Assembly: GCA_963716175.1 (NCBI GenBank)
Contig: OY970296.1
Span: 4,000,001-4,064,000, forward strand
Origin: an uncultured Armatimonadetes bacterium
GTDB taxonomy: Bacteria > Armatimonadota > Hebobacteria > Hebobacterales > Hebobacteraceae
Reading direction: 5' to 3'
DNA length: 64,000 nt
Of the stretch, positions 1-50,577 are shown piece after piece (position 1 is the stretch's first letter; each line of letters starts with the position of its first letter). The notes under the pieces are model-generated. The model did not search any database, was not told the DNA's origin, and was given only the letters and a program-made list of their open reading frames with translations. The position numbers and the translations under genes were made by a program.

Positions 1-670
1 GGCCCACACCCCTCTTGGCATAGGCCTCCAAGGCCTGCAGCACCCGCGCCATGCGGTAGATCGCATTCACACCTGCCTCCGGCCGGGAGCTGTGGGCGGC
101 CTTGCCGGCGGTGGCGACTCTGAATCTGGCCACCCCCTTGTGGGCGACCACGATCTGGAGACTGGTGGGCTCACCCACCACTGCCGCTCGCGCCTGCAGG
201 CCCGACTCCAGTAGGCTGAGCAGTCCTCGCATGCGGAACTCCTCATCCGCGGTGGCGGTGAAGACCACCGCGTGAGGAAGCCGGGTCCCGGCCTGCGCCA
301 GGGTGATGAGGGCGGCCACCATGGCGGCCAGACTGCCCTTGTCGTCGGCTGACCCCCGCCCGTACAGGATATCGCCCTCCACTCGGGCCTGGAAAGGAGC
401 GAAGGCCATGCCTTCACCGGAGACCGTGTCCAGGTGAGCGTCGAACCAGACCGCCTCCTCGCTTTGCCCTGGCAGGCGAGCGACTACGCTGGGCCGGCCC
501 GGCGCGGCCTCTCGCTGCTCGCAGGCAATCCCCGCCTCGCGCAGTCGAGCCTCCACGAGGGCCGCCAGTTGGGCCTCGCCCCGGCCTTCACCGAGCGGGC
601 CTTCCAAGGGGTTCACACTGGGGATCGCTACCATCTCCGCGACTAGCTTTCTGAGCTGCTCTCTGTCCAT
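1..670 (-). CDS. M20 family metallopeptidase/deacylase (ArgE/DapE-like), truncated by window start
   Basis: Read manually on the minus strand from ATG at 670: MDREQLRKLVAEMVAIPSVNPLEG...FDAHLDTVS...ILYGRGSADDKG...TADEEF. These are M20 zinc-binding motifs. Not in the ORF track because it runs off the window. Confidence 0.85.
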   Translation of the reverse strand, partial: MDREQLRKLVAEMVAIPSVNPLEGPLGEGRGEAQLAALVEARLREAGIACEQREAAPGRPSVVARLPGQSEEAVWFDAHLDTVSGEGMAFAPFQARVEGDILYGRGSADDKGSLAAMVAALITLAQAGTRLPHAVVFTATADEEFRMRGLLSLLESGLQARAAVVGEPTSLQIVVAHKGVARFRVATAGKAAHSSRPEAGVNAIYRMARVLQALEAYAKRGVG

Positions 671-996
671 GGCCCGGCGCGAGGAATCGCTGTCACCCCC
701 ACAACTGACTTCCTGAGCCGGTCCTCTCCTGGTTAGACACATCTCCGCGGCTCAGGCCCGCGGTCGTGCTTTCGCCGGCCGGGCGCTGGCATCCTCTCCC
801 CGGCCTGCCGGCGAACAGCCGCTCACAGACGCAGGTGATATGTGATTGGTCGCTGGGCAGGCGTGGTATATCAGGCGTAGTATATATGGAGGGGCCGGCC
901 GAAGTGAGCGTGGCCAGGCAGAGAGCGGCTGCTGGCGCGTTTTCGGTCGGGCCTGGGTGTACCATCCCGCAGATCACACAGCAGGAGGCACAAGGG

Positions 997-1911
997 ATGC
1001 TGACGAGCATAACGCGTCGCGCGCTGCCCGGTCTGGTCGGGCTTGCGTTTCTGGCGCTGTCCGCCACCAGCGCCGCCGCCGAGACGAAATGGCCGGCGGC
1101 CATGACCTACTCCCTCGGGCTCTCGAGTGATCCCACGGCCAAGATTCAGACCAGCGCGTTCTTCTATGGCCCCCTGAACGAGGAGTTCGGGGCCAAGATC
1201 GGCGGCTGGTGGATCGCCGGGGGCCGGGATAACCGCGCGTTCGTGGGCGATGCCTATGTTGACTACCACAAGCAGGCGCTCTACCTCGCGGCCGGTCGCA
1301 AGTTCGTGCCCTTTGGCCCGGCCGGGATTCTGGTCTCGCCCGGCGTCGCCGGGGGCGAGCTGCGGCTGGACTTCCCGCGGGTGGACGTGCAAGCGATCAC
1401 CGGGACGCTGGCCTTCACACCCGTCACCGGAGGCACCCGGTTCACCTTCGCCGGCAACCGCTCTCCTGCCGATGAGAACATCACCGCGGGGCGGGTGGCG
1501 GTGGCGTTGGCAGAGCCGACGGCCTCGGTGCCGGTGACGGTGGGAGGCAATGTGCTGCGGCTGCTGGACCATACCGGCCACAGCGGCGATATCTCAGTTG
1601 ATGCCGCCAAGTGGCTGAACCTGTTCGGGGAAGCGGCCAGCTTCGAGCACGTTCACGCCAGCGCGTATGGCCTCCGCCTCAGCAATCAGAAGGTGAAGCA
1701 GGACCCGAACCGCTACACCATGCTGACCATCTATCACCGGCGGGTTCCGGTGGGCTTCCTGCCCGCGGTGGCGGGCGCTACCCAGTATTTCGAGGACCAG
1801 ACCGGCTGGGTGGCAGGGCTCTACCATCAGTTCAACCCGCGCCAGGGCGTGGGTGTGTACGCGGACAACGAGAACGCCATCTTGACCCTGTTCGGATACG
1901 TGCCCCTCTGA
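997..1911 (+). CDS. Exported hypothetical protein, possible outer-membrane beta-barrel
   Basis: ORF 766..1911; likely start 997 after GGAGG. Signal peptide MLTSITRR...SAAA. Mature part is Gly/aromatic-rich with alternating beta-strand-like segments. Confidence 0.6.
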   Translation: MLTSITRRALPGLVGLAFLALSATSAAAETKWPAAMTYSLGLSSDPTAKIQTSAFFYGPLNEEFGAKIGGWWIAGGRDNRAFVGDAYVDYHKQALYLAAGRKFVPFGPAGILVSPGVAGGELRLDFPRVDVQAITGTLAFTPVTGGTRFTFAGNRSPADENITAGRVAVALAEPTASVPVTVGGNVLRLLDHTGHSGDISVDAAKWLNLFGEAASFEHVHASAYGLRLSNQKVKQDPNRYTMLTIYHRRVPVGFLPAVAGATQYFEDQTGWVAGLYHQFNPRQGVGVYADNENAILTLFGYVPL

Positions 1912-2028
1912 TCGCGGGCGCACTGCAGGCAAGCTGGCGGCCGTCCCGGCAGGCCCATTCGGACTGTGGGATTCCGCAAGGGATGTGGAACAAACCACAC
2001 GGATGAGACCTCCAGGGACGGTTAGTTC

Positions 2029-2226
2029 ATGTCCGTGTTATCTGACCAAGCGTCTCCCTCCCAAGTAGCGCCGCCCCAAAGCGGTGAAGCGGAACTGCCG
2101 AAGGTGCGCTGCTTGTGCGGGAAGTGGTGGTCGTATCGAAGCGGGGACAAGCTGATCCTGCGCTGCAAGCTGTGCAGACGAGAGATCGTCATCAGCGGGG
2201 AGAAGCTGACAATCACATACCGCTGA
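2029..2226 (+). CDS. Small Com-like zinc-ribbon protein
   Basis: 65 aa, VRCLCGK...ILRCKLCRREIVI. Two Cys pairs with the spacing of Mu Com / cysteine-rich KTR type zinc ribbons. Confidence 0.6.
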   Translation: MSVLSDQASPSQVAPPQSGEAELPKVRCLCGKWWSYRSGDKLILRCKLCRREIVISGEKLTITYR

Positions 2227-2272
2227 ACCTGGTCTGAGCGTAATCTAGAGCCGCAGCGCCAAAGATTCTGCC

Positions 2273-2305
2273 AGAGCCAAGGGCCGAAGCAGCCCTTGGC
2301 TTTCT
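2273..2305 (+). terminator. Terminator/attenuator-like hairpin upstream of the polysaccharide genes
   Basis: AGAGCCAAGGGC-CGAAGCA-GCCCTTGGCTTT, followed by CT. 12-bp stem including one G-U pair; short U-tract. Confidence 0.5.
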
Positions 2306-2384
2306 GCATGGCCCCCTGGCCTGTCTCATCCGCAACCTGAGCTTGCCCTTCCGTCCTTCGGCGGGAAGGCGAGAGGCAACGGAG

Positions 2385-4091
2385 ATGAGACGGCCACGGG
2401 GACGACTCGCCGTCTGGGGCGCGCGGCTCTCGATCTCGCTGGTCTGGCTTCCGGTCCTGGTCGTGGGCGCGAGCTCGCACCTGGCGCGGCGCACCAGACC
2501 AGGGATTCCCGAGTACCCGCAGGTGGCGCGCGTCACCGCACAGATGGCCGAGGGCGCAGCCCTCCTGCCCGCGGAAGGGGCCGAGCGGGCGGAGGCGTCT
2601 CCGCGCGCCGCGGTGCTCGGGCTGACCCGAGCAGAGGTCGCCTCGGGCGTGCCCTCACTGGCAGTGCTGGCCGAGGCCGCCCCTCATCGCCCAGGCCCGC
2701 CCGCCGGCCTTGCGGCGGGTTCCAGGTCATTCCTCCCGCACTCTTCGGGGCCGGCGCCAGAACCGGTCGCTCCCTTGACCGAATTGGCGCATTCCGTCAG
2801 TCAACCGCCGCCTGCTGCCGCGAGCGCGCCTCGCCTGGCGCCGGCTCCCAGCCTTGCTCTGGTTCCTACCCCCGAGCCGCACGCGAGACCCCGGCCGGTG
2901 CCGCCGGCGGTGTCGGGTCCGCCCAACATCAGCCAGCAAGCGCTGCCGACCCCGCGCGCACGGGCGCCGCGCACCGATTCCCGGCTGCGCCCGAGCGAAG
3001 CCCTGGCCGCCGCCTGGGCCGAGCAGAACGTGCGCTCCGTGCGGTTCGACGCCGGCTACTACTACGGCACGGGCAAGAGCATGCGGCAGCTCGCCGATGA
3101 CCTGACCCGTTCCTGGGCGGAGAAGGGCGTCAACCTCATCTACTACTACGCCTACAACCGTGTGTACGGGGCCCGCTATCGCACCAGCTACCCCGGCAAT
3201 ATCATGGAGGATTTCGGCCGGCAGGACCTGCTCACCTACATGCTGCAGTCAGCGCACAGCCGGGGCCTGAAGGTGATTGCCTGGTTCTACGGCCCTCAGC
3301 ACAAACGGATCTGGGAAACCCACCCGAAATGGAGGGAGAAGACCGCGGACGGCCGCGACTACCGCCCCAGCGCCGACGGCTACTACCTATGTGTGCGAAA
3401 CCCCGAGGTAGTGAAGTGGTGGCTCGGGTTCATTGACGACATCCTGGTCCACTACCCCGACCTGGACGGAGTGGATATCGCGGAGGCGCAGGTGGACACC
3501 TGGGGCGATCACGCCTGCCACTGCCGAGAGTGCCGGAACCAGTTCACCCAGAGCTACCCGCGGCAGCCCCTGGGAGGAACGAGCTGGCGCCAGTTCCGGG
3601 CTGATGGCCTCAGCCGTCTTTTGCTGGCCACTAACCACCTGACCCACGGATACGGGAAGGAGGCTCACCTCACCACAGTGTTCACGGCCAAGGCCGATGG
3701 CAGACTGATGGCCCCCGGTATGGTCCGCGACGCCACCGGCTTTGACCTCGACGGTATCCTTTCCAGCACCGACAGGCCGGATGTGATCCAGGCCGAGCTG
3801 ATCTGGCAGCAGTGGGCGGCCACTTACCAGGATCCGGTGACCTTCACCGCGGAATGGACTCACCAGGCGGTGGACGAAGCCAAGTATCTGACTGCGGGGA
3901 GGGCTCGCCTGATCGCCCATCTGGAGGTTACCGACTTCGGCCTGGGTCCGCTCGACGGGCCTCGACTCGGCACCACCGTGGCGGCCGCGGTCCAAGGCGC
4001 GCCCTACGGCATTGATGTCTACGACGCACATCTCATTGACCAGACGGAGGACGCCACCCGATACCTGCAGATGGCCTGGCTTACCTTCTAA
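2385..4091 (+). CDS. Membrane-anchored glycoside hydrolase-like protein (GHL10/GHL13-type TIM barrel) with Pro/Ala-rich linker
   Basis: N-terminal hydrophobic segment and long Pro-rich stalk, then GVNLIYYYAY...DLLTYMLQSAHSRGLKVIAW...YPDLDGVDIAE...CHCRECR. Confidence 0.75.
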   Translation: MRRPRGRLAVWGARLSISLVWLPVLVVGASSHLARRTRPGIPEYPQVARVTAQMAEGAALLPAEGAERAEASPRAAVLGLTRAEVASGVPSLAVLAEAAPHRPGPPAGLAAGSRSFLPHSSGPAPEPVAPLTELAHSVSQPPPAAASAPRLAPAPSLALVPTPEPHARPRPVPPAVSGPPNISQQALPTPRARAPRTDSRLRPSEALAAAWAEQNVRSVRFDAGYYYGTGKSMRQLADDLTRSWAEKGVNLIYYYAYNRVYGARYRTSYPGNIMEDFGRQDLLTYMLQSAHSRGLKVIAWFYGPQHKRIWETHPKWREKTADGRDYRPSADGYYLCVRNPEVVKWWLGFIDDILVHYPDLDGVDIAEAQVDTWGDHACHCRECRNQFTQSYPRQPLGGTSWRQFRADGLSRLLLATNHLTHGYGKEAHLTTVFTAKADGRLMAPGMVRDATGFDLDGILSSTDRPDVIQAELIWQQWAATYQDPVTFTAEWTHQAVDEAKYLTAGRARLIAHLEVTDFGLGPLDGPRLGTTVAAAVQGAPYGIDVYDAHLIDQTEDATRYLQMAWLTF

Positions 4092-4196
4092 TGAATGTCG
4101 CCCAACGAAGTAACGGGCGGCATTCATCAGAAAGCCAGGAAATGGCTGAAGAAAGGACGTTCGCACAATGTTACTTCATTGCGCGAACGTCAGTAG
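4088..4196. mobile_element. MITE-like element, family B (copy 1)
   Basis: Imperfect terminal inverted repeats CTAATGAATGTCGC / GCGAACGTCAGTAG. Two hairpins, each carrying GAAGTAA, in opposite orientation. Related copy at 11894..11997. Confidence 0.6.
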
Positions 4197-4495
4197 TGTG
4201 GGGTGGCGCGGACCGCGAGGCCCGCGCGGGCTTGCCCGCCGGCCGTCTGGCGGGCGCTGACGGCGCTTGGTCGCACCCAGCGCCGCGAGCAATCGCAGCA
4301 ACTGGACGAGGGGGTCCAGTCTCACCGGCCGCGGCCCGTTCCCGAGCCGGGAGCGGAGCCGCGGAGAACGCCCGGCCGGATGACCTCCGCATCCGGCCGG
4401 GCGCCATCTTCCCGCAGTCAGCCTCCGCGGCGACAGTCCTCGAGACTCGCTGGGGGTGTGGCCGCTTTCTCAGGGTGGGCCGGAGATCGCTCCTC

Positions 4496-4613
4496 TGTCA
4501 TCCTGAGCGTCAGCGAAGAGCCTGCCCTGAGCGAAGTCGAAGGGATCTCGCCGTCTGCGCCAACGGAACGGCGGGATTCTTCGCCTCGCGCTGTGCGCTC
4601 GCTCAGAATGACA
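4496..4613. repeat. Palindromic TGTCATCCTGAGC...GCTCAGAATGACA repeat with a nested CCCTGAGCGAAGTCGAAGGG insert
   Basis: Terminal inverted arms TGTCATCCTGAGCG / CGCTCAGAATGACA, with internal GAAG..GGATCT / GGATTCTTCG arms. Confidence 0.7.
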
Positions 4614-4748
4614 ACGACGGCCGCCCAGACTTTGCGGTCACGCCCCTCGCTGGTGTTGCACGCCTGCTGCAGACGTGGCATGATAGATTGGCGTCTCGCC
4701 GGCTGGCTGTCCCACCATCGCGGGTAGTCAGCAGACGACGCGGATCGG

Positions 4749-6515
4749 TTGATGCGAGGGCTTCCAGTCGTCTTACTGCTAACGTGCCTGCTCACCGCGG
4801 GTGCGGCCCGCGCCGCGGAGACGCGGGTGTTGGTGGTCTACAGTGAAGGGCAGGCGCCGAAGCTGGCCGCGCAGTGGGTCGTGCCGGCCCTGCTGAACCT
4901 GCTCGGCCATTTCGATTGCACCAACACCGTGATCCCGGCCGATGCCTACCAGCCCGGGCAGATCGAGACCTGTGATGTCGTCATCTACCTCGGCCTCGGG
5001 CCGGCCAAGGCTCTGCCGGAGGCCTTGCTGTCCGATATCTATGGCACCAATCGCCCGGTCTGCTGGCTGGGCTACAATCTCGATCTGCTCGCCGCTCGCT
5101 TCTCCCTGGAGCGGTACAGCTTCGAGGTGGCCAGGGAACCGGCCGGCGGGAAGCATCCTCGGGTGATCTACCGCTCGCAGGTGCTGACACGGCCGCAGAT
5201 GCCGATGGCCAGGATCACGGTGACCCATCGCGCCTCCTGCATCGTGCTGGCCGCGGCCGAGGGAGAGGGCCAGGCCCTGCCCTACGCGGTGCGGAGCGGC
5301 CGCTTCTGGTACTTCGCGGATGTGCCGCTGATGGAGTTGAGTGAGACCGGGAGCCATGTTGCCCTGAGCGACCAGCTTCACGAAATCCTGGGCCAGCCTC
5401 ACCCGGCCCGGCGGACCGCCCTGATCTGCATCACGGGGGTGAGCGCGCAGACCGACCTCGGGGGCCTGCGAGCGCTGGTGCGGTACCTGCAAGGGGAAAA
5501 GCTCCCCTACGCCATCGCCGTCATCCCGCTGTTCCGGGATCCGCGAGAGGATCTGGAAGTGCGGCTCAGCAGCCGACGCAGCGTGGTCGGGATCGTTCGC
5601 GGGGCCCAGCGGGCAGGAGCGGCCACCATCGCAAATGGCTTCACCCATCAGTTCGGGAGCCGCAGCGGCGAGGACGCGGAGTTCTGGGACTTGGCGCGAA
5701 ACCGGCCGCCCCTGGGCCACACTCCCTCTGACACCGTGCAGCGCATCCGGCAAGCTATTGCTGAGTTGGGCCGCTGTGGGCTCTATCCGACGGTTTGGGC
5801 GACGCCGCAGGGCCGGGCCTCCTCGGCTGACTATGCAGAGATCGCGCGGGCCTGCTCCACCACCTGGGAGCGACGGCTGACGAGCGTGCTGGCGCCGGGC
5901 CCCCAGACCTTCCCGTTCCTGGTCAAGCGAGATAGCTTCGGACAGCGGGTGATACCCGATAACCTGAGCGTGCTGCGGGGCGGCGGCGGCGAGCTGGAGA
6001 CGATCCTCGAGCAGGCCCGATGCCAGTCCGTGGTGCCGGACCCCTGGCTGACCGCGGCGATTGCGCCAGAGGCGCCCCTGGAGTCGGTGAAGTTGCTGAT
6101 CGCGGCCCTGCGCGAGATGGGCTACCAGTTCGCCGACCTGCGGCGGGACACCGGTTGGATGAAGGGGCGATCCCTGGAGATCTACTCGACGGGCGCTCCC
6201 ACCCCCATCACCCGGCTCATGCCGAGTGGCTGGGACGCGACCCTGCTGGGCCCAAGCCGGCGTGACCTGACCCGCTTCGAGAGCCCGGACAGCGACGAGA
6301 GGGATAGCGCTGTCCTGCGGCCTGGGGCGATTCTCATCACCTATCCCTCCGGCGGCCGGCCACGCGAGATCTTCGCCTTCGAGGGAGGGCCTGAGGAGAT
6401 GGCCCAACGCGCGGTGGCGGGCGTCGCGCGGGTGATCGTGATCTTCGCACTGGGCGCCTGCGTGCTGTTCATCCTCATCTACCTGACCCAGATCTCGCTC
6501 CAGTGGCGGGCCTAG
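4749..6515 (+). CDS. DUF2334 (YdaL-like) polysaccharide deacetylase-like protein with signal peptide and C-terminal TM anchor
   Basis: LLNLLGHF, PYAIAVIPLF, NGFTHQ..SGEDAEFWD motifs typical of DUF2334; C-terminal hydrophobic helix. Confidence 0.75.
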   Translation: MMRGLPVVLLLTCLLTAGAARAAETRVLVVYSEGQAPKLAAQWVVPALLNLLGHFDCTNTVIPADAYQPGQIETCDVVIYLGLGPAKALPEALLSDIYGTNRPVCWLGYNLDLLAARFSLERYSFEVAREPAGGKHPRVIYRSQVLTRPQMPMARITVTHRASCIVLAAAEGEGQALPYAVRSGRFWYFADVPLMELSETGSHVALSDQLHEILGQPHPARRTALICITGVSAQTDLGGLRALVRYLQGEKLPYAIAVIPLFRDPREDLEVRLSSRRSVVGIVRGAQRAGAATIANGFTHQFGSRSGEDAEFWDLARNRPPLGHTPSDTVQRIRQAIAELGRCGLYPTVWATPQGRASSADYAEIARACSTTWERRLTSVLAPGPQTFPFLVKRDSFGQRVIPDNLSVLRGGGGELETILEQARCQSVVPDPWLTAAIAPEAPLESVKLLIAALREMGYQFADLRRDTGWMKGRSLEIYSTGAPTPITRLMPSGWDATLLGPSRRDLTRFESPDSDERDSAVLRPGAILITYPSGGRPREIFAFEGGPEEMAQRAVAGVARVIVIFALGACVLFILIYLTQISLQWRA

Positions 6516-6518
6516 CTG

Positions 6519-9056
6519 ATGCGGCGATTCCCCACGCTGGTGCCGGTGCTGCTCGCGCTGGCTCTCACCACCGGATGCCATCGCCAGGCGGCGCCGCCTC
6601 CCAGAGTCAGCCTGCCGCCCTCACCTCCAGCCGCGCCCGTGCGGGTGCTGATCGTGCGAGAGGACGGGGAGGGCCTGGCGGATTGCGCCCGCGAGCTGGC
6701 GGCCCTCCTGGCGCATTTCGAGGAGCGCTGCTCCATCCTCCCGGCGTCGGAGTATAAACCGGGCCTGTTGGGCCGCTATCCCTACGCCTTCTATCTCACT
6801 GGCACAGCCGCGGCCCGGGCGCAGTCGCGTGTCGCCGCCGACGCCAGCAGCTACCAGGGCACATTGGCCTGGATCGGCGGTGGCATCCAGGCGCTAGGTG
6901 ACTCCGCTCTCAGCCGCTTGCATCTCACCCCTGACGAGGGGCCCAGCACCTCGGATGGCTGGCTGCTCTCCTACCGCGGCCAGAGCCACGTAGAACGACT
7001 GACCGTGCCCGGGGTGCGGGCCGGCGCGGGAGCGAAGGCGCAGGCGGAGGTGCAGAGCAAGGGGGATCGGCGGCCGTTCCTGGTCGGTAACGGCAAGCTC
7101 TGGTACGCGGCCGCTGGCCCCGCGCCAGGGAGGGATCACTTCTGGAGCCGGTGCGTCTGGGCCGACGCGCTGCACGAGATGCTCGCCTGCTCCCATCCCC
7201 GGCAGCGCCGGCTGGTGGCAGTGCTCCGCGATGTTCCGGTATGGGTGAACGAGCGGCAGGTGCCAGCCGTGATCCAGCCGCTGCTGGCGGCGCAAGTTCC
7301 GGTCTCCGTGCTGGCGGCAGCGAAGACGGGGGACGTCCTGCTCTCCGAACGCCCGGCGGCGGTGCGCGGCCTGCGCCGGGCCGAGGCGCTGGGGGCAGTG
7401 ATCACGCTCTCAGGTGAGGCCAGGTCGCGGGCGCGGGAGGAGCTGCGGATGGCCTGGGAGGTGGGGCTTCACCCCCTCGCCTGGGCCGGGCCCACCGGGG
7501 AGGACAATCCCTTTCGGCTCCGAGTGGCCGGGCCGGATGACTCGCCTCCTTTCTCGGCCGGCGGCCTGCTGCCAGCTCCCATCCCCCTCAGCGATGCCGG
7601 CTACATCTCACGAGAGGACGCCGCGCATCTCCAGATGCTGGAGGTGGTGAGAGACGCGGTGGCGCTGGTCTCTTTCGGCCTGTGGGCGGCTCCGCAGCCA
7701 TTCCTGCGGTTCGTGAAGGGCCAGGAGGCTCGCGGCTGGCGGCCCGCGGACCTGCGAGACCTGGGTGCGCTGGTGACAGACTCGCGGCGCACCCTGGTGT
7801 CGGGCCAGGCGAAGGTGCTGCTGCCTTCAGATACGCGTCTTCGCAAGAGGGTGTTTGGGCCGCGCTGGGAAGAGAAGAGCGAGGAGACAGTCTCTTTCCC
7901 TGGCTCCTCGGTGGGCGAGCGCAGCATTGCCGCTCCGGAGCGCTCGGCGGTGGCCTTGGAGGCCGTCCGGCGGATGCCCGCCCGGCCTTTCCTCACCGGT
8001 GTCACCCTGGATCCCTGGTCCTACAGCGATCTGGGTGTGTCCAGCGAGACGCTGGCGGAAGCGCTGGCGGAGCGATACTCCCGCAATGGGGTCAACACTG
8101 TCTTCTGCTATGCTTATAATGTTGATGAGGGGGCTGCTTACCGTACCCGATATCGCGGCGCCTCCACGAGCGATTGGGGACGCCAGGACCTGCTGGGGCA
8201 TTTGCTCGAGGCGTGCCACGGTCGGGGAGTCCGGGTGGTAGCCTGGCTGTATAGCGGACGCGACCGGGGAATGTGGCTGCGACACCCGGAGTGGAGAGAG
8301 CGAACTGCTGGAGGCAAGGAATATAACCCGCTGCGGCTGCATGCGACTTACTTTCTCTGCCCGCGGAACCCGGAGGTGCGCCGCTGGCACGCGGGGCTGG
8401 TGCAGGACCTGGCCCGCCGCTACCCGACCCTCGATGGGATCGAGTTATGTGAGCCGCTGGTCAACTGGTGGGGCGATCAGGCCTGCTACTGCGAGGTGTG
8501 CCGGCGGGAGTTCGCGGCGGCCCATCCCCGGGAGGCCCTCGGGGGGCCGGCCTGGCGGCGCTTTCGGGCCCAGGGGTTGGGCGGGTTCCTCTCCCACTGC
8601 CTGGAGGCGATCTCGCAGGAGGGGATTGACACCTACATCATGACTATCAGCGACGCCTGGAGCAACGGGGCGATCCTGTCACCGCAGCGGCAGGCGGACG
8701 AGTCCGGGTTCGATCTGGACGCTCTGCTGGACGGCCCCCACCCACCGGACTGGGTCAACTTCGAGGTGATCTGGCAGCAGTGGGCGGCGATCTATGGGGC
8801 CGAGGTGTTCAACTCCCGGTGGGCGGCGGAGGCCGCGCAGCAGCTGGTGCGGCGCACCGACGGCCGGGCCCGGGTGGTTCTGCATGTGGAGCTGACGGAC
8901 TTCGGATCCCAGCAGATGACTCCCGCCAAGATCGCGGAGACGATCAGCCGGGTGAGCGCGGCCAGGCCCAACGGCATCGAGTGCTATCACTCCGCGGCGG
9001 TTGACAGCAAAGCGGCCTGGACCGTGCTGAAGCGTTCCTTTGAGGGGCTGCGGTGA
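6519..9056 (+). CDS. Lipoprotein: degenerate DUF2334-like N-terminal region fused to a GHL10/GHL13-like hydrolase domain
   Basis: Lipobox LTTGC. LAALLAHF and DALHEML resemble the previous gene. C-terminal half is clearly paralogous to 2385..4091 (GRQDLL, LDGIELCE, IWQQWAA). Confidence 0.75.
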   Translation: MRRFPTLVPVLLALALTTGCHRQAAPPPRVSLPPSPPAAPVRVLIVREDGEGLADCARELAALLAHFEERCSILPASEYKPGLLGRYPYAFYLTGTAAARAQSRVAADASSYQGTLAWIGGGIQALGDSALSRLHLTPDEGPSTSDGWLLSYRGQSHVERLTVPGVRAGAGAKAQAEVQSKGDRRPFLVGNGKLWYAAAGPAPGRDHFWSRCVWADALHEMLACSHPRQRRLVAVLRDVPVWVNERQVPAVIQPLLAAQVPVSVLAAAKTGDVLLSERPAAVRGLRRAEALGAVITLSGEARSRAREELRMAWEVGLHPLAWAGPTGEDNPFRLRVAGPDDSPPFSAGGLLPAPIPLSDAGYISREDAAHLQMLEVVRDAVALVSFGLWAAPQPFLRFVKGQEARGWRPADLRDLGALVTDSRRTLVSGQAKVLLPSDTRLRKRVFGPRWEEKSEETVSFPGSSVGERSIAAPERSAVALEAVRRMPARPFLTGVTLDPWSYSDLGVSSETLAEALAERYSRNGVNTVFCYAYNVDEGAAYRTRYRGASTSDWGRQDLLGHLLEACHGRGVRVVAWLYSGRDRGMWLRHPEWRERTAGGKEYNPLRLHATYFLCPRNPEVRRWHAGLVQDLARRYPTLDGIELCEPLVNWWGDQACYCEVCRREFAAAHPREALGGPAWRRFRAQGLGGFLSHCLEAISQEGIDTYIMTISDAWSNGAILSPQRQADESGFDLDALLDGPHPPDWVNFEVIWQQWAAIYGAEVFNSRWAAEAAQQLVRRTDGRARVVLHVELTDFGSQQMTPAKIAETISRVSAARPNGIECYHSAAVDSKAAWTVLKRSFEGLR

Positions 9057-10335
9057 ACCTCGACCTGTGGTCTCTGGTCCATGATTCCCTGCTTGCCCTG
9101 TGCCTGCTGGGAGTGTGGGCCATCATCGCCCTCTACGCCGTGCTCTCTCTCGCCGGGTTCATCTACTCGCGGGAGGCGGCGCGGGCGCGAAAGGAACCGC
9201 GGGCCCTCGCCGACTGGCCCCCTGTCTCCATCCTGGTGCCTGCCCACAACGAGGAAGTGGTGATGGCCGGCACCATCGAGAGCCTGCTCCATCTGGATTA
9301 CCCGCGCCAGCGTCTGGAGGTGATCGTGATTGACGACTCCTCCACCGACCGCACCCGGCAGGTGGTCGAGCACATGATGAGCGCCGATCGGCGGCTGAAG
9401 CTGGTCGCGATCCCCCCGGGGATGGGGGACGAGGCAAATCCCATGCCCTCAATGTGGGCCTGGCCTATGCCTCGCACGATCTGATCGCGGTGTTCGACGC
9501 CGACAACTCGCCGGAGCCCCAGTCGCTGCAGCACCTGGTGGCGGAGCTGATGGCCGATCGCCGGCTCGCCGCGGCGGCGGGCAAGGTCCGCACCCTCAAC
9601 CAGGCCAGCAACTTCCTCACCCGCTGCATTGCCATCGAGTTCATGAGCTTCCAGTGGATGGTGCAGGCCGGCCGCTGGCGGCTGTTTCGCTTGGCCTCTC
9701 TGCCTGGCACCAACTATGTGATCCGGCGAGAGGCGCTGGAGCGGGTCGGATGCTGGGATCCCACCGCCATCGCCGACGACGCCGAGCTGACCGTGCGGCT
9801 GAGCCAGGAGGGTTACCAGATCAAGTTCGTGCCCTATGCCGTAACCTGGGAGCCCGAACCCCAGGACTGGGGAGTGTGGCTGCGGCAGCGGCTGCGCTGG
9901 GCGCGCGGCGGCACCTATGTGCTGAGGAAGTTCCTGCCCCGGCTGCGTCGGGTGCGGCGCCGGGACCTGGCGCTGGAGGTGCTCCACCTCTTCACCATCT
10001 ACCACCTGTTCTTCGCCGTGATGCTGCTGTCAGATGCGATCCTGATCTCAGGGCTGATCGCGGGATTGGCGGTGGGCGCCAGGGGCAGTCCGCTGATCGC
10101 GCTCTGGGGGTTGGCGATAGGGGTCTTCCTGCTGGAGACGGCGGTGGCCCTGGCGATCGAGGGAGAGAACAGCCCGCTGAATCTGCTGGTGGCCGCAGCC
10201 ATGTACTTCACCTATTGCCAGGCCTGGCTGTACGTGTGTGCGAAGGCCCACTATCTGGATGTGGTAAGACAAGAGCGGCTGCGCTGGGAGAAGACAGTGC
10301 GAGTGCCGCGCCCGGCCCAGGCCGGGGGCCAGTAA
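9053..10335 (+). CDS. Processive GT2 glycosyltransferase (YdaM/PgaC/IcaA-like), split by a frameshift near 9425-9430
   Basis: SILVPAHNEE and IDDSSTD in ORF 9053..9484; FDAD, ADDAEL and QRLRWARG in ORF 9454..10335. Adding one G to GATGGGGGAC restores ...MGGRGKSHALN. Confidence 0.85.
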
Positions 10336-10356: not shown

Positions 10357-11761
10357 ATGACTGTCGAGATCGGTTTCGTTGGGACTATCGCACTGTTTCT
10401 CGGCGGCCTGGTAGGTTCCGGACTGCTGTTCCACTTCTTCGCTTGGTGGGGCCGGGCGGCCGCGCTGTCGCGCGCCCGACGGATCGCGGCCCGGCTCAGA
10501 GAGCCCGCCCTCACGCTGACCGCGGTGGAAGACCACTCGGCTGCGATAGATGAGCTGGTGCAGTTCGGCGATGGGGAGGCCGCGGTGGCGGCGGCGCGGG
10601 AGCTGCTGGACGGGACTGATGGGGCGCTGCGCTCGGCCGCCATCGAGATCCTGCGTCGCACCCGCGCCCTCGACCGCTGGGCGCGAGACCTGAGAAGGAG
10701 CGGCTACCGCACCAAGCTGCGCGCGATCGAAGCTTTGGGCCAGGTGGGTGACGAGAGGGCGGTGGCAGAGCTGATCGAGGCCCTGGGCGACGACGATTCC
10801 GGGGTGGCTCAGGCCGCCTCCCAGGCGGTGACGGCGCGGGATCCGGACTATGCCGCGGACCGGCTGGCCGATGCCCTGTCGTCTCCCAGCCGGCGGGTCG
10901 CGGAGACCGCGGCCGCCACCCTGGTGCGCATGGGCGCGGACGCAACAGAGGCGCTTGTGGGGCAGCTCGCCAGCCTCCAGCCTCAGGCCCGGCGCCTGGC
11001 CATCGAATCCCTGGGCGCGGTGGGGGGAGCCGAGCTGGCGGACCTGCTGCTGCCCCTGGTGGAGATTGACCCTGATGCGGAGGTCCGGGCGGCCGCGGCG
11101 GAGGCGCTCGCGCGCGGGGGGAGAGCGGGCGATCGCTCAGCTCCGGCGGCTGGCCCAGTCCGACCCGGATTGGTTCGTGCGGGGCCGGGCCTATTGCCTG
11201 CTGGCGGAGATGAACGCGCCAGGCGCCGCCCGCTTCCTGCTGGACGCGTTGGCCGCCCTGCAAGTGGAGAGTCCACGGGTGAGTGACTTGGGTGATGCTG
11301 TGGACGCGATCGGTGACGGCACGCGCAGGGTGCAGACCTCCATCATCGTGGGTCTGCGAGCGCTGGGGCTGAGTGAGGAGGAGGTGGCGCGGGCGCAGCG
11401 GTTGCCAGAGGCCCCCGATCCGGAGATGGCGGCAGTCACGGACGAGGGGGCGACGGCCGACCTTTGGTCGGAGACGATTGCTGCCCTGACTGGACAAGAC
11501 CCAGCCCGGCGGGCCGAGGCCGCGCGCCAACTGGCGGAGGCAGGCCCGCTTGCGATCTCGCCGCTCCGGCGGGCCTTGCGCGACCCGGAGCCTGTGGTGA
11601 GGGCCGAGGCCGCTCGCTCCTTGGGCCGCATTGGCTCACCCGATTGCCTGGAGGGCCTGGCGGCCTGCGTGCGCGATCCGGACTCCGGAGTTCGGCTCGC
11701 CAGCTCCATCGCCATGCGCGCCATCATCACCCGCGACGCGGCACGGGAGCTGCGGGAGTAG
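10357..11761 (+). CDS. Membrane-anchored HEAT-repeat protein, frameshift near 11110-11122
   Basis: N-terminal TM, then HEAT repeats (AIEALGQVGDERAV; DPDAEVRAAAAEAL). Continues in ORF 10850..11761 (DPDWFVRGRA; DPEPVVRAEAARSLG). Confidence 0.8.
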
Positions 11762-34084: not shown

Positions 34085-34324
34085 GGCGGCTCCTCTGGAC
34101 CATACTCGGCGCTCGCTTTCGACGGTCGGGAAAGCCAATCCTTCTCTGCGGCGCCGGCCCGCAATGTGGAATAAGGCTTTGGGGTGGCTAGGTCGGCAGC
34201 GCCGACCGCTGGCTAAGCCCGCCTTCGGCGGGCCGCCATCCCGGCTTTCAGGCCTAGGGACATGGCGGCCGGAGGCCTAGCCACAGGCGGCCGCCTGTGC
34301 CCCGCGCCGATCAGGAGTCATACT

Positions 34325-49787: not shown

Positions 49788-50529
49788 CCACCCGCAAGGT
49801 GTGCCGCGGCCGCCTCAGTTGGGCCTGCATCTCGGACAGGGTCACGAAGCGGTAGCCGCGGCGGCGCAGGTCTTGGATGATCTGGGGCAGCGCGTCTATG
49901 GTCTGCTGCACCCCGTCGTGCATCAGGATAATCCCGCCATTGCTGACGCGAGCCAGCACGCGCCGCTCGATCCTACGCTCGCTGCGGCTCAGGTAGTCGG
50001 CGGAGTTGTCCGTCCACAGCACCGTGGTGAGCCCGAGTTCGCCGGCCGCGGTGACGCTCTCGCGATCGTAGCGCCCACCCGGGGGCCGGCAGTATTTCAT
50101 CCGCTCTCCGGTGATCGCCTGCACCGCCTGCTCGCATTCCTCCCACTCGGAGGTGACCCTCTCGCCCGTCAGCCGCGCGATGTTCACGTGGTGGAAGGTG
50201 TGGTTGCCGATCTCGTGTCCGGCCGCCCGCTCCTCCCGCACCAGCTCCGGGTGCTTCTGGGCCATCTTGCCCACCACGAAGAAAGTCGCCTTCACCTGGC
50301 AGCGATCTAACGCCGCCAGCAGCTTCGGGGTGAACTCGGGATGCGGGCCATCGTCGAAGGTGAGAGCGACGGCTTTGACCGCGGGATTGCCGCGGGTGAG
50401 CTTCAGGTAAGGACTGTGCTTGCGCGACCCGCCAGCCGCTGGGCCCGGGCCGGTCGTCTGCCCGGCCGCGCTCGCGGCGAGCAGACAGGCAGCCAACACG
50501 AACGGGAATGCAACACCGCCTCTGAGCAT
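49762..50529 (-). CDS. NodB-type polysaccharide deacetylase (CE4), exported
   Basis: LTFDDGP, HEIGNHTFHH, RPPGG, ILMHDG. Confidence 0.92.
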   Translation of the reverse strand: MLRGGVAFPFVLAACLLAASAAGQTTGPGPAAGGSRKHSPYLKLTRGNPAVKAVALTFDDGPHPEFTPKLLAALDRCQVKATFFVVGKMAQKHPELVREERAAGHEIGNHTFHHVNIARLTGERVTSEWEECEQAVQAITGERMKYCRPPGGRYDRESVTAAGELGLTTVLWTDNSADYLSRSERRIERRVLARVSNGGIILMHDGVQQTIDALPQIIQDLRRRGYRFVTLSEMQAQLRRPRHTLRVAKALPAAP

Positions 50530-50577
50530 CTCCTAGTTTATTCCACATCGCCTGCACCCCGTTCTCACGCGCGGTAC

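Follow-up and report, generated by a model that had tools for sequence, protein, structure and literature searches.

The DNA considered here (the window) is a stretch of 64,000 nucleotides (nt) from an uncultured Armatimonadetes bacterium (GCA_963716175.1, contig OY970296.1, positions 4,000,001 to 4,064,000) with a GC content of 67.7%. Close to its beginning lies a small gene encoding a predicted zinc-ribbon protein of 65 amino acids (aa). It is followed, directly after the stop codon, by a conserved RNA element of ~75 nt that includes a terminator-like hairpin, and then by an operon of polysaccharide genes. A first-pass annotation of this DNA had reported the open reading frame, the AGAGCC copies and the hairpins, all of which are where it had placed them. 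To these we add a third hexamer (2255-2260), the conserved GUCUGAGCG block and a complementarity between the leader of the small gene and the spacer behind the hairpin. The parts on which the argument turns are the following:

2000..2028, + strand: 5′ leader of the small gene, containing CGGAUGAGAC (2000-2009), CCAGGGAC as ribosome-binding region (2012-2019) and GGUU (2020-2023); it supplies the 5′ strand for a long-range helix
2029..2226, + strand: gene for the 65-aa zinc-ribbon protein, ATG 2029 to TGA 2226 (homologs, alignment, codon conservation)
2232..2272, + strand: 5′ half of the RNA element, with the GUCUGAGCG block (2232-2240), a short stem and a 16-nt loop holding two hexamers (locus alignment)
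2273..2305, + strand: terminator-like hairpin whose 5′ arm opens with hexamer 3, AGAGCC, at 2273-2278 (pairing, compensatory changes, folding energy)
2308..2332, + strand: spacer complementary to the leader, with AUGGCC, CCCUGG (2314-2319) and GUCUCAUCCG (2323-2332) (RNAduplex)

Most locus counts given below refer to a set of 12, made up of the window and 11 loci from metagenome-assembled genomes that were recovered in one genome scan. These 11 loci all belong to Armatimonadota or 'Hebobacteria', with one carrying a Bacillota label. The locus in question (L011, JAUVSA010000240.1) has the gene order and the sequences of the Armatimonadota loci, and its label may be a binning or labelling error.

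The RNA element behind the stop codon

The element lies directly 3′ of the stop codon in 12/12 loci, beginning 5-31 nt after it. In the window the DNA reads, in this order, GTCTGAGCG (2232-2240), AATCT (2242-2246), AGAGCC (2247-2252), GC, AGCGCC (2255-2260), AA, AGATT (2263-2267) and CTGCC. In the RNA a short stem of UCU (2244-2246) with AGA (2263-2265) closes a 16-nt loop that contains both AGAGCC and AGCGCC. The block GUCUG[A/C]GCG is kept in all 12 loci. Hexamer 1 (2247-2252) is AGAGCC in 10 loci, AGCGCC in one and GGAGCC in one, while hexamer 2 (2255-2260) is AGCGCC in 6, AGAGCC in 5 and CGCGCC in the remaining one. Its GCC does not vary, and invariant loop nucleotides lie upstream of the hairpin. 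Hexamer 3 (2273-2278), located in the hairpin arm, is AGAGCC in 8 loci, TGAGCC in 2, and GGAGCC and AGAACC in one each. The mean pairwise identity over the 12 loci amounts to 81.6% in the 5′ part and 90.9% in the 3′ arm of the hairpin. For comparison, the hairpin loop reaches 27%, and synonymous third codon positions in the neighbouring gene reach 54%. At one pair of the loop stem (alignment positions 15-36), 8 loci have UA and 4 have CG, without any single-sided change. The stem had originally been drawn as AATCT pairing with AGATT; its UCU/AGA part does covary, but the two outer pairs are often unpaired (in 5/12 and 4/12 loci). A possible outer helix (2234-2239 with 2270-2274) shows no variation and is thus neither supported nor refuted by covariation. 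Judged by this conservation, the RNA element is real.

A covariance model of the element finds exactly one copy per locus and none elsewhere in 148,535 bases. Hexamers of the AGAGCC type together with the hairpin are present downstream of all 11 homologs for which DNA is available, so that their absence there, named in the first-pass annotation as a refutation, does not apply. The AGAGCC pair would not stand out within the window alone, since the hexamer occurs 46 times (64 expected) and clusters of at least three G[AC]GCC within 56 nt number 29 on both strands. It is their conservation across loci that raises the motifs above chance. The density of G[AC]GCC per 56 nt is 3.25 inside the element and 0.35 outside.

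The hairpin of the window has 12 base pairs (bp), 2273-2284 with 2292-2303, G-U pairs included, and is followed by CTGCATGGCC. In the alignment of the 12 loci, 10 pairs can be followed, 99.2% of the cells are paired and three pairs show compensatory changes, one case being AGAACC/GGUUUU in L011. The folding energy lies between −18 and −25 kcal/mol in every locus, and in every locus 5-8 T residues are found among the 12 bases after GGC. Since the G-U pairs fit the + strand only, we are dealing with an RNA feature and not with a DNA palindrome. The third hexamer constitutes the first part of the 5′ arm in all 12 aligned loci. Moreover, the lower stem is kept in sequence and not merely in pairing, which a plain terminator would not need. 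Two further structures were considered by eye in the alignment, a pair of small hairpins of the ANTAR type and a mini-hairpin that would display the third hexamer, and were rejected because the closing base is not conserved.

The small protein and phage Com

A word-indexed search yielded 40 homologs of the 65-aa protein (E 1e-35 to 4e-15, 51-97% identity), nearly all of them 63-86 aa long. Identity at codon positions 1/2/3 is 83/90/53% over the 12 loci, which is conservation of the coding type, and the small open reading frame is therefore a translated, conserved gene, as the first-pass annotation had assumed. The N-terminal ~25 residues are variable, acidic and predicted with low confidence; they precede an invariant core, CLCGKWW...L.CKLCRR...YR. 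The near-fixed part of the homolog alignment reads KVRCLCGKWWxYRSGDxLxLRCKLCRR[DE]IVIxGExLxIxYR, with GKWW and RCKLCRR invariant. The cysteines of the window protein (C28-x-C30 and C46-x-x-C49) are invariant in 41/41 family members, and likewise in 27/27 sequences, and are candidate zinc ligands. An AlphaFold2 model has three strands and a confidence value (pLDDT) of 71.6 overall, ~87-89 in the core and <50 at residues 1-8. The prediction of a homodimer with zinc scored 0.25 (mark 0.42) and is used neither for nor against any reading. Several database entries of 80-86 aa (P0009, P0030, P0032, P0036-P0038) start with MWNKP..., which is the upstream element ATGTGGAACAA described further below, read as codons. 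These N-terminal extensions look like gene-calling artefacts, because the same frame in the window stops after 7 codons.

Only 23 proteins were found at E≤1e-3 in a profile search of 1.84 billion representative proteins, while a second search with a broader alignment gave 152. None of the 152 proteins of this wider CxCGK family carries a Pfam domain or an informative name, and the named sources among them include Clostridia and Desulfobacter records. The distant relatives share the pattern (V/I)RC-x-CGK(L/I)(L/I)...(I/V)x(I/L)(K/R)CxxCKR. NCBIfam had nothing for the 65-aa protein or for those operon genes that were tested. Among 50,697 phage records, tblastn matched neither the window protein nor the distant member P0058. 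The first-pass annotation had also stated that related Cys-rich KTR-type genes are followed by GAGCC-like repeats. This found no backing: none of the 41 members matches Cys_rich_KTR (PF14205) at E≤10, nothing relevant turned up in the literature searched, and the distant relative P0054 reaches only E 0.018 and 15.3 bits with a cut-off of 25.5.

The same annotation had called the protein Com-like, which holds as remote homology and not as membership of the curated family. The broad family profile matches Mu Com (sequence from AF083977) with an hhalign probability of 90.9% and an alignment of five phage Com proteins with 92.1% (E 6e-7, 41 columns, four cysteines in register). When the profile was shuffled 100 times with the cysteine columns fixed, the scores were 13.8 ± 3.2 with a maximum of 24.3, and none of the 100 reached the observed 34.8. 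By this control the profile similarity to Com extends beyond the cysteine spacing. The intermediates P0054, P0056 and P0058 match the Com PHROGs at 1.4e-6 to 2.6e-4, and in a protein-language-model atlas a cluster automatically named 'Com family' is among the nearest (score 0.94), with the PF10122 cluster at 0.90. The cysteines of the family align with C6, C9, C26 and C29 of Com with a one-residue gap, the first pair being CxC instead of CxxC. For Zn_ribbon_Com (PF10122) the curated cut-off is 22.9 bits; Mu Com as the positive control scores 36.8 bits and the distant member P0054 13.7 bits, under the cut-off. Since the Com models of Pfam and PHROGs (13819 and 6417) all miss it, the window protein is no member of the curated Com family. 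By profile comparison, the 65-aa protein is a divergent branch of the Com superfamily outside that family.

Leader-spacer complementarity and a possible read-through switch

The 5′ leader of the small gene and the spacer behind the hairpin are complementary. In the window CGGAUGAGAC (2000-2009) pairs with GUCUCAUCCG (2323-2332), and CCAGGG of the ribosome-binding region (2012-2017) pairs with CCCUGG (2314-2319). The duplexes are interrupted and 23-30 bp long, and in 8/11 loci RNAduplex energies were significant (p≤0.007) against 300 dinucleotide shuffles of the spacer. The two strands change together: L006 has CGAAUGAGAC with GUCUCGUUCG, L011 has GGAUGGAGC with GCUCCAUCC and L008 has GGCGAUAGACC with GGUCUCUCGCC. 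Eight loci were aligned with MAFFT, three of them being out of register in one helix. Of the leader-spacer cells in this alignment 78.4% pair, compared to 30-47% with the partners slid. One pair of the helix at the ribosome-binding site is CG in 3 loci, UA in 2 and UG in 1. In folds of the full 380-450-nt transcript the helix belongs to the minimum-energy structure in 6/11 loci, and in those 6 the ribosome-binding site of the small gene is unpaired with a probability of 0.00-0.08, versus 0.25-0.67 in transcripts that stop at the hairpin. Extending the leader to −70 was uninformative as to where the helix starts, as RNAduplex then spanned the whole GC-rich sequence.

This complementarity explains two conserved features, namely UUGGCC after the hairpin, found at the start of the spacer in 9/12 aligned loci (AUGGCC in the window), and GAUGAGACC, which is conserved in the leader. 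The first-pass annotation had seen an upstream GGA cluster as part of a two-tier post-transcriptional cascade, for which no support was found. The GGAUG of the leader occurs in only 7/12 loci and the segment is better explained as a strand of the long-range helix. Pairing between leader and spacer is sensible only if both are on one transcript, and the complementarity suggests that read-through transcripts are made and are under selection. Only ~36 nt separate the hairpin from the following start codon in L003 and L004. This leaves no space for a separate promoter, so that the operon must be reached by read-through.

The spacer also has an alternative partner in the start region of the next gene (2380-2401; E −39.4, p=0.007 in the window). 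As the minimum-energy fold of the window pairs the spacer with this region, two competing partners are suggested. As a general feature, a long stem concealing the first operon gene's start was rejected: only 3/11 loci beat the shuffles (p<0.05) and the z-scores of the folds are mostly unremarkable. The stem is a local feature of some loci, the window included.

Our preferred reading is a read-through switch that depends on the protein and has a feedback by way of the leader-spacer helix, and we give it a probability of roughly 0.4; binding, its direction and termination are what we infer from the sequences. The small gene would encode a divergent RNA-binding protein of the Com superfamily, with the element behind its stop codon as the cis-acting target. 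By default the hairpin (2273-2303) would end most transcripts, and only the small protein would be made, from short transcripts with a free leader. Once accumulated, the protein would bind the single-stranded AG[A/C]GCC hexamers, of which the loop (2247-2260) holds two and the hairpin's 5′ arm the third. Binding would prevent hairpin formation and RNA polymerase would read through into the polysaccharide operon. In the resulting transcript the spacer would pair with the leader of the small gene and cover its ribosome-binding site, switching off synthesis of the regulator in a negative feedback. A further effect of the pairing might be to leave the first operon gene's start region free, or to provide a double-stranded site for processing. 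That the third hexamer begins the 5′ arm in every locus points to the hairpin as the controlled step. A more far-reaching version would make this the first zinc-ribbon antiterminator (of the Com superfamily), with hexamer binding overriding the terminator of an exopolysaccharide operon and the read-through transcript silencing its own regulator, a self-limiting switch that depends on the transcript isoform. We advance it tentatively and regard it as rather doubtful.

Several observations weigh against such a switch. On the side of the protein, PF10122 matched neither the window protein at E≤1 nor, at E≤10, a single one of the 41 family members, and the window protein had no hit among the Com PHROGs. 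For the narrow family by itself the hhalign probabilities with Com are only 29.6-38.7%, and the first zinc knuckle is CxC and not CxxC. Structure searches brought nothing significant: the AlphaFold2 model had 0 matches at E≤0.001 in the PDB (generic zinc ribbons only) and 0 at E≤0.001 in the viral library BFVD, and the sequence profile had 0 matches among PDB chains at E≤10. On the side of the RNA, the hexamers are GAGCC compared with the published GAG(N)2CC, and the loop-closing pair is U-A and not C-G. The tail of the window hairpin has only 5 T in 12 bases and a consensus terminator scan (≥5 T in 8 bases) did not list this hairpin. No conserved structure excluding the hairpin was found, as the 5′ element and the hairpin coexist in minimum-energy folds; any antitermination would hence have to come entirely from the protein. 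In L003, L004 and L010 the leader-spacer helix does not reach significance. Its covariation is modest, shuffle controls reaching the percentage paired in 17/500 cases and the covariation score in 43/500. Cognate leader-spacer pairs outrank non-cognate ones only partly, with energy ranks of 1 and 1 for L011, 1 and 3 for L008 and middling ranks for the other loci; both strands share conserved cores, so that the evidence for co-evolution is only moderate. Finally, all 12 loci were recovered via the protein, so the co-occurrence of gene and element is tested one way only, and the loci are non-independent (L008 and L009 are near-identical; L003, L004 and L010 form a single clade).

The element might instead be independent of the small protein, as a small riboswitch, the site of another factor, a small RNA derived from the 3′ untranslated region, or a stability or processing element, for example through RNase III acting on the leader-spacer duplex. 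The protein would then bind DNA, RNA polymerase, the polysaccharide machinery or similar. A helix-junction element abutting a terminator is indeed the usual layout of a transcriptional riboswitch, polysaccharide operons are often controlled by riboswitches, and RNase III substrates have a size like that of the 23-30-bp duplex. However, Rfam 15 (riboswitches included) gave only a tRNA for the whole window at gathering scores, and only three chance-level microRNA models for 1900-2450 at E≤10. The part upstream of the hairpin measures only ~40 nt and consists mostly of near-identical tandem hexamers, a hallmark of protein sites such as those of HutP and Com, and Com, the nearest characterised relative, binds GAG/CC repeats in RNA loops. 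Gene and element are also adjacent in all 12 loci. We therefore hold this explanation to be unlikely, though it is the best of the alternatives.

Still less probable is that the protein binds the element or the leader with an outcome other than antitermination, be it translational activation as in Mu, autoregulation of its own mRNA at the level of stability or translation, or stabilisation of the hairpin and thus more termination. Mu Com works on translation by opening a hairpin that contains the start codon (PMC6483171), and the pairing of the window spacer with the next start region would suit such a role. The element sits in the 3′ untranslated region of the small gene itself, and a GAG-A-CC or GAGCC motif in the leader (GAUGAGACC, or GAUGAGCC in L003, L004 and L010) could be a second binding site. 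On the other hand, the start-region pairing beats shuffles in few loci, as described above. The next start codon lies 80-115 nt past the conserved element with a hairpin between, and the position of the third hexamer speaks for the hairpin as the controlled step. An ordinary terminator behind an unrelated small gene, with locus similarity due to recent common descent, would fit the GC-rich hairpin and T-rich tail after the stop codon and the origin of all loci from one phylum, but is very improbable given that the element is 82-91% identical where nearby neutral sites and the hairpin loop reach 54% and 27%, that hexamers and invariant loop nucleotides lie upstream of the hairpin, and that leader and spacer are complementary and co-vary.

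A read-through switch of the kind we favour can be compared with three known arrangements. For Mu Com, systematic evolution of ligands by exponential enrichment (SELEX) gave a bipartite GAG(N)2CC motif; what was bound was CC(N)2-3GAG within the loop of a hairpin next to a 3-4-bp stem, duplex RNA was bound poorly, and binding is thought to open an adjacent structure hiding the mom start codon (PMC6483171). Both proteins have ~60 aa, a four-cysteine zinc ribbon (predicted in our case) and a disordered tail, and are encoded immediately upstream of the (here putative) target; they share the pattern (I/V)RC..C.K...(I/L).(I/L)(R/K)C..C(K/R)R with all four cysteines in register. The published Com target is a GAG...CC repeat pair in a hairpin loop near an expression-blocking structure, to which the two GAGCC/GCGCC hexamers in a loop on a 3-bp stem compare by sequence resemblance only. 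CC-NNN-GAG spans the first two hexamers in 5/12 loci. The differences are also clear: the disordered tail is N-terminal here and C-terminal in Com, the first knuckle is CxC, the curated models miss the protein, the gene does not overlap its target gene, the hexamers have the form GAGCC or GCGCC, the motif is joined to a terminator-like hairpin and not to a start codon, and the operon is chromosomal in Armatimonadota with no phage genes seen alongside.

In Pseudomonas, com-like genes precede lectin-like bacteriocin genes and, in P. syringae, levansucrase and glycosyl-hydrolase genes; their role is called unexplored (PMC6240691, PMC3899960). The resemblance lies in a small Com-type gene right before non-phage genes that include carbohydrate-active and levan enzymes. 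In contrast to our locus, those proteins are true PF10122 members of prophage origin, from another phylum and another subfamily, and the accessible parts of the reports mention no downstream RNA element or terminator. In the hutP-hut operon of B. subtilis the regulator gene comes first, an intrinsic terminator separates it from the structural genes, and the RNA of this terminator carries repeated triplets to which HutP binds (PMC2425495). The likeness to HutP is one of layout only: regulator gene, terminator overlapped by motifs, structural genes, with gene, motif and hairpin together in 12/12 loci and the operon in 9/9. Fold and family are unrelated, the motif differs and HutP requires histidine as a co-factor. 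The types treated in a 2025 review of RNA-binding antiterminators (PMC12591593) are CAT, ANTAR and HutP, and the whole word 'zinc' occurs 0 times in its text.

No description of this protein family or RNA element was found in the open-access literature searched. As far as the comparisons go, the locus is a new protein subfamily, a new RNA element and a new host context for Com-type protein-RNA control, and the Com-type regulator probably acts here at a different step, termination. Com has so far been a one-system model, that of phage Mu and its mom gene. The locus provides a chromosomal, non-phage branch of the superfamily with a well-defined and strongly conserved candidate RNA target, and the role of Com-like proteins outside Mu becomes directly testable with a 65-aa protein and a 75-nt RNA. 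Should the terminator override be true, it would add a fourth structural class to the CAT, ANTAR and HutP antiterminators and offer a first handle on exopolysaccharide regulation in Armatimonadota, a phylum with almost no genetics. In that case the unannotated CxCGK family of 152 proteins would represent a class of small regulators that bind RNA and are widespread. The helix between the 5′ leader and the sequence behind the terminator is a structure that only one transcript isoform can form.

The operon and its surroundings

The remaining features of the locus are these:

1965..1993, + strand: conserved upstream elements, TGTGGGATT (1965-1973) and ATGTGGAACAA (1983-1993), 18-20 nt apart (locus alignment)
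about 2342..2373, + strand: GC-rich hairpin before the ribosome-binding site of the next gene (minimum-energy fold)
2385..4091, + strand: first operon gene, GHL10-like and glycosyl-hydrolase-like, 568 aa with an N-terminal membrane anchor (Pfam GHL10, 4.9e-9)
4749-6515, + strand: DUF2334 protein, operon
6519-9056, + strand: DUF2334-like plus GHL6/GHL10 protein, operon
9053-9484 and 9454-10335, + strand: family-2 glycosyltransferase in two overlapping frames, operon
10357-11286 and 10850-11761, + strand: HEAT-repeat protein in two overlapping frames, operon

The first operon gene starts at ATG 2385 and is served by the ribosome-binding site GAGAGG at 2371-2376. A homolog of this hydrolase-like gene lies directly downstream of the small gene in all nine loci whose contig extends far enough. 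The conserved gene order starts with an opposite-strand M20 peptidase and goes on with the gene of a 381-aa protein that belongs to no known family, the small gene, the GHL10-like gene, DUF2334 and DUF2334-like plus GHL6; the genes for the family-2 glycosyltransferase and the HEAT-repeat protein come next in the window. The label of a polysaccharide operon, given from the start, is borne out by the GHL10-like, DUF2334 and glycosyltransferase genes and is a fair one, because the gene make-up is that of a synthase-type exopolysaccharide locus. The hairpin in front of the ribosome-binding site had been described as a UUCG hairpin. A hairpin does exist there, but in the minimum-energy fold its loop is CUUC; its sequence is not conserved among loci, most of which have some GC-rich hairpin at this place.

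The glycosyltransferase is split, with its N-terminal part in one frame and the Glyco_trans_2_3 part in the other, and the HEAT-repeat protein likewise; these split frames could be frameshifts, sequencing errors or pseudogenes. Between the hydrolase-like and the DUF2334 genes there is a gap of ~650 nt (4092-4748), which is ~370 nt in L001. It contains strong hairpins, one at 4156-4191 with 15-bp arms that resembles a terminator on the minus strand and one at 4369-4403 with perfect arms of 14 bp, and a long open reading frame in it has no Pfam match. The gap could be an insertion remnant or a non-coding RNA. The conserved 381-aa protein (766-1911) is always located upstream on the same strand and matches nothing in Pfam or NCBIfam; with polysaccharide genes next to it, a role as a component of export or of the outer membrane is conceivable.

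In L003, L004, L008 and L010, insertions of 0.55 to 5 kb part the 381-aa gene from the small gene. A conserved leader of ~100 nt stays with the small gene in spite of them, so that the small gene and the operon form a unit apart from the upstream gene. In these same loci the two upstream elements stay with the small gene as well, and GGAA and AA in the second element are invariant in 12/12 loci. The upstream elements are a candidate promoter or operator of the small gene. No sigma-70 consensus was found in 1-5000, which says little for this phylum. The sequences at 1965-1973 and 1983-1993 contain a direct repeat TGTGG(G/A)A, ~20 nt apart and conserved across loci, which could be a two-site operator for a transcription factor. 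Matches to ATGTGGAACAA with up to two mismatches number 8 in the window with 4.6 expected, which is not above chance. The element recurs as ATGTGGAATAA at 34164-34174 (+) and 50538-50548 (−), both intergenic and facing the downstream gene. One of these copies precedes AGGAG-ATG by ~10 nt (minus strand, near 50527), the second precedes the ATG at 34262 by ~90 nt, and ATGTGGAACAA and ATGTGGAATAA may represent a promoter element of this organism.

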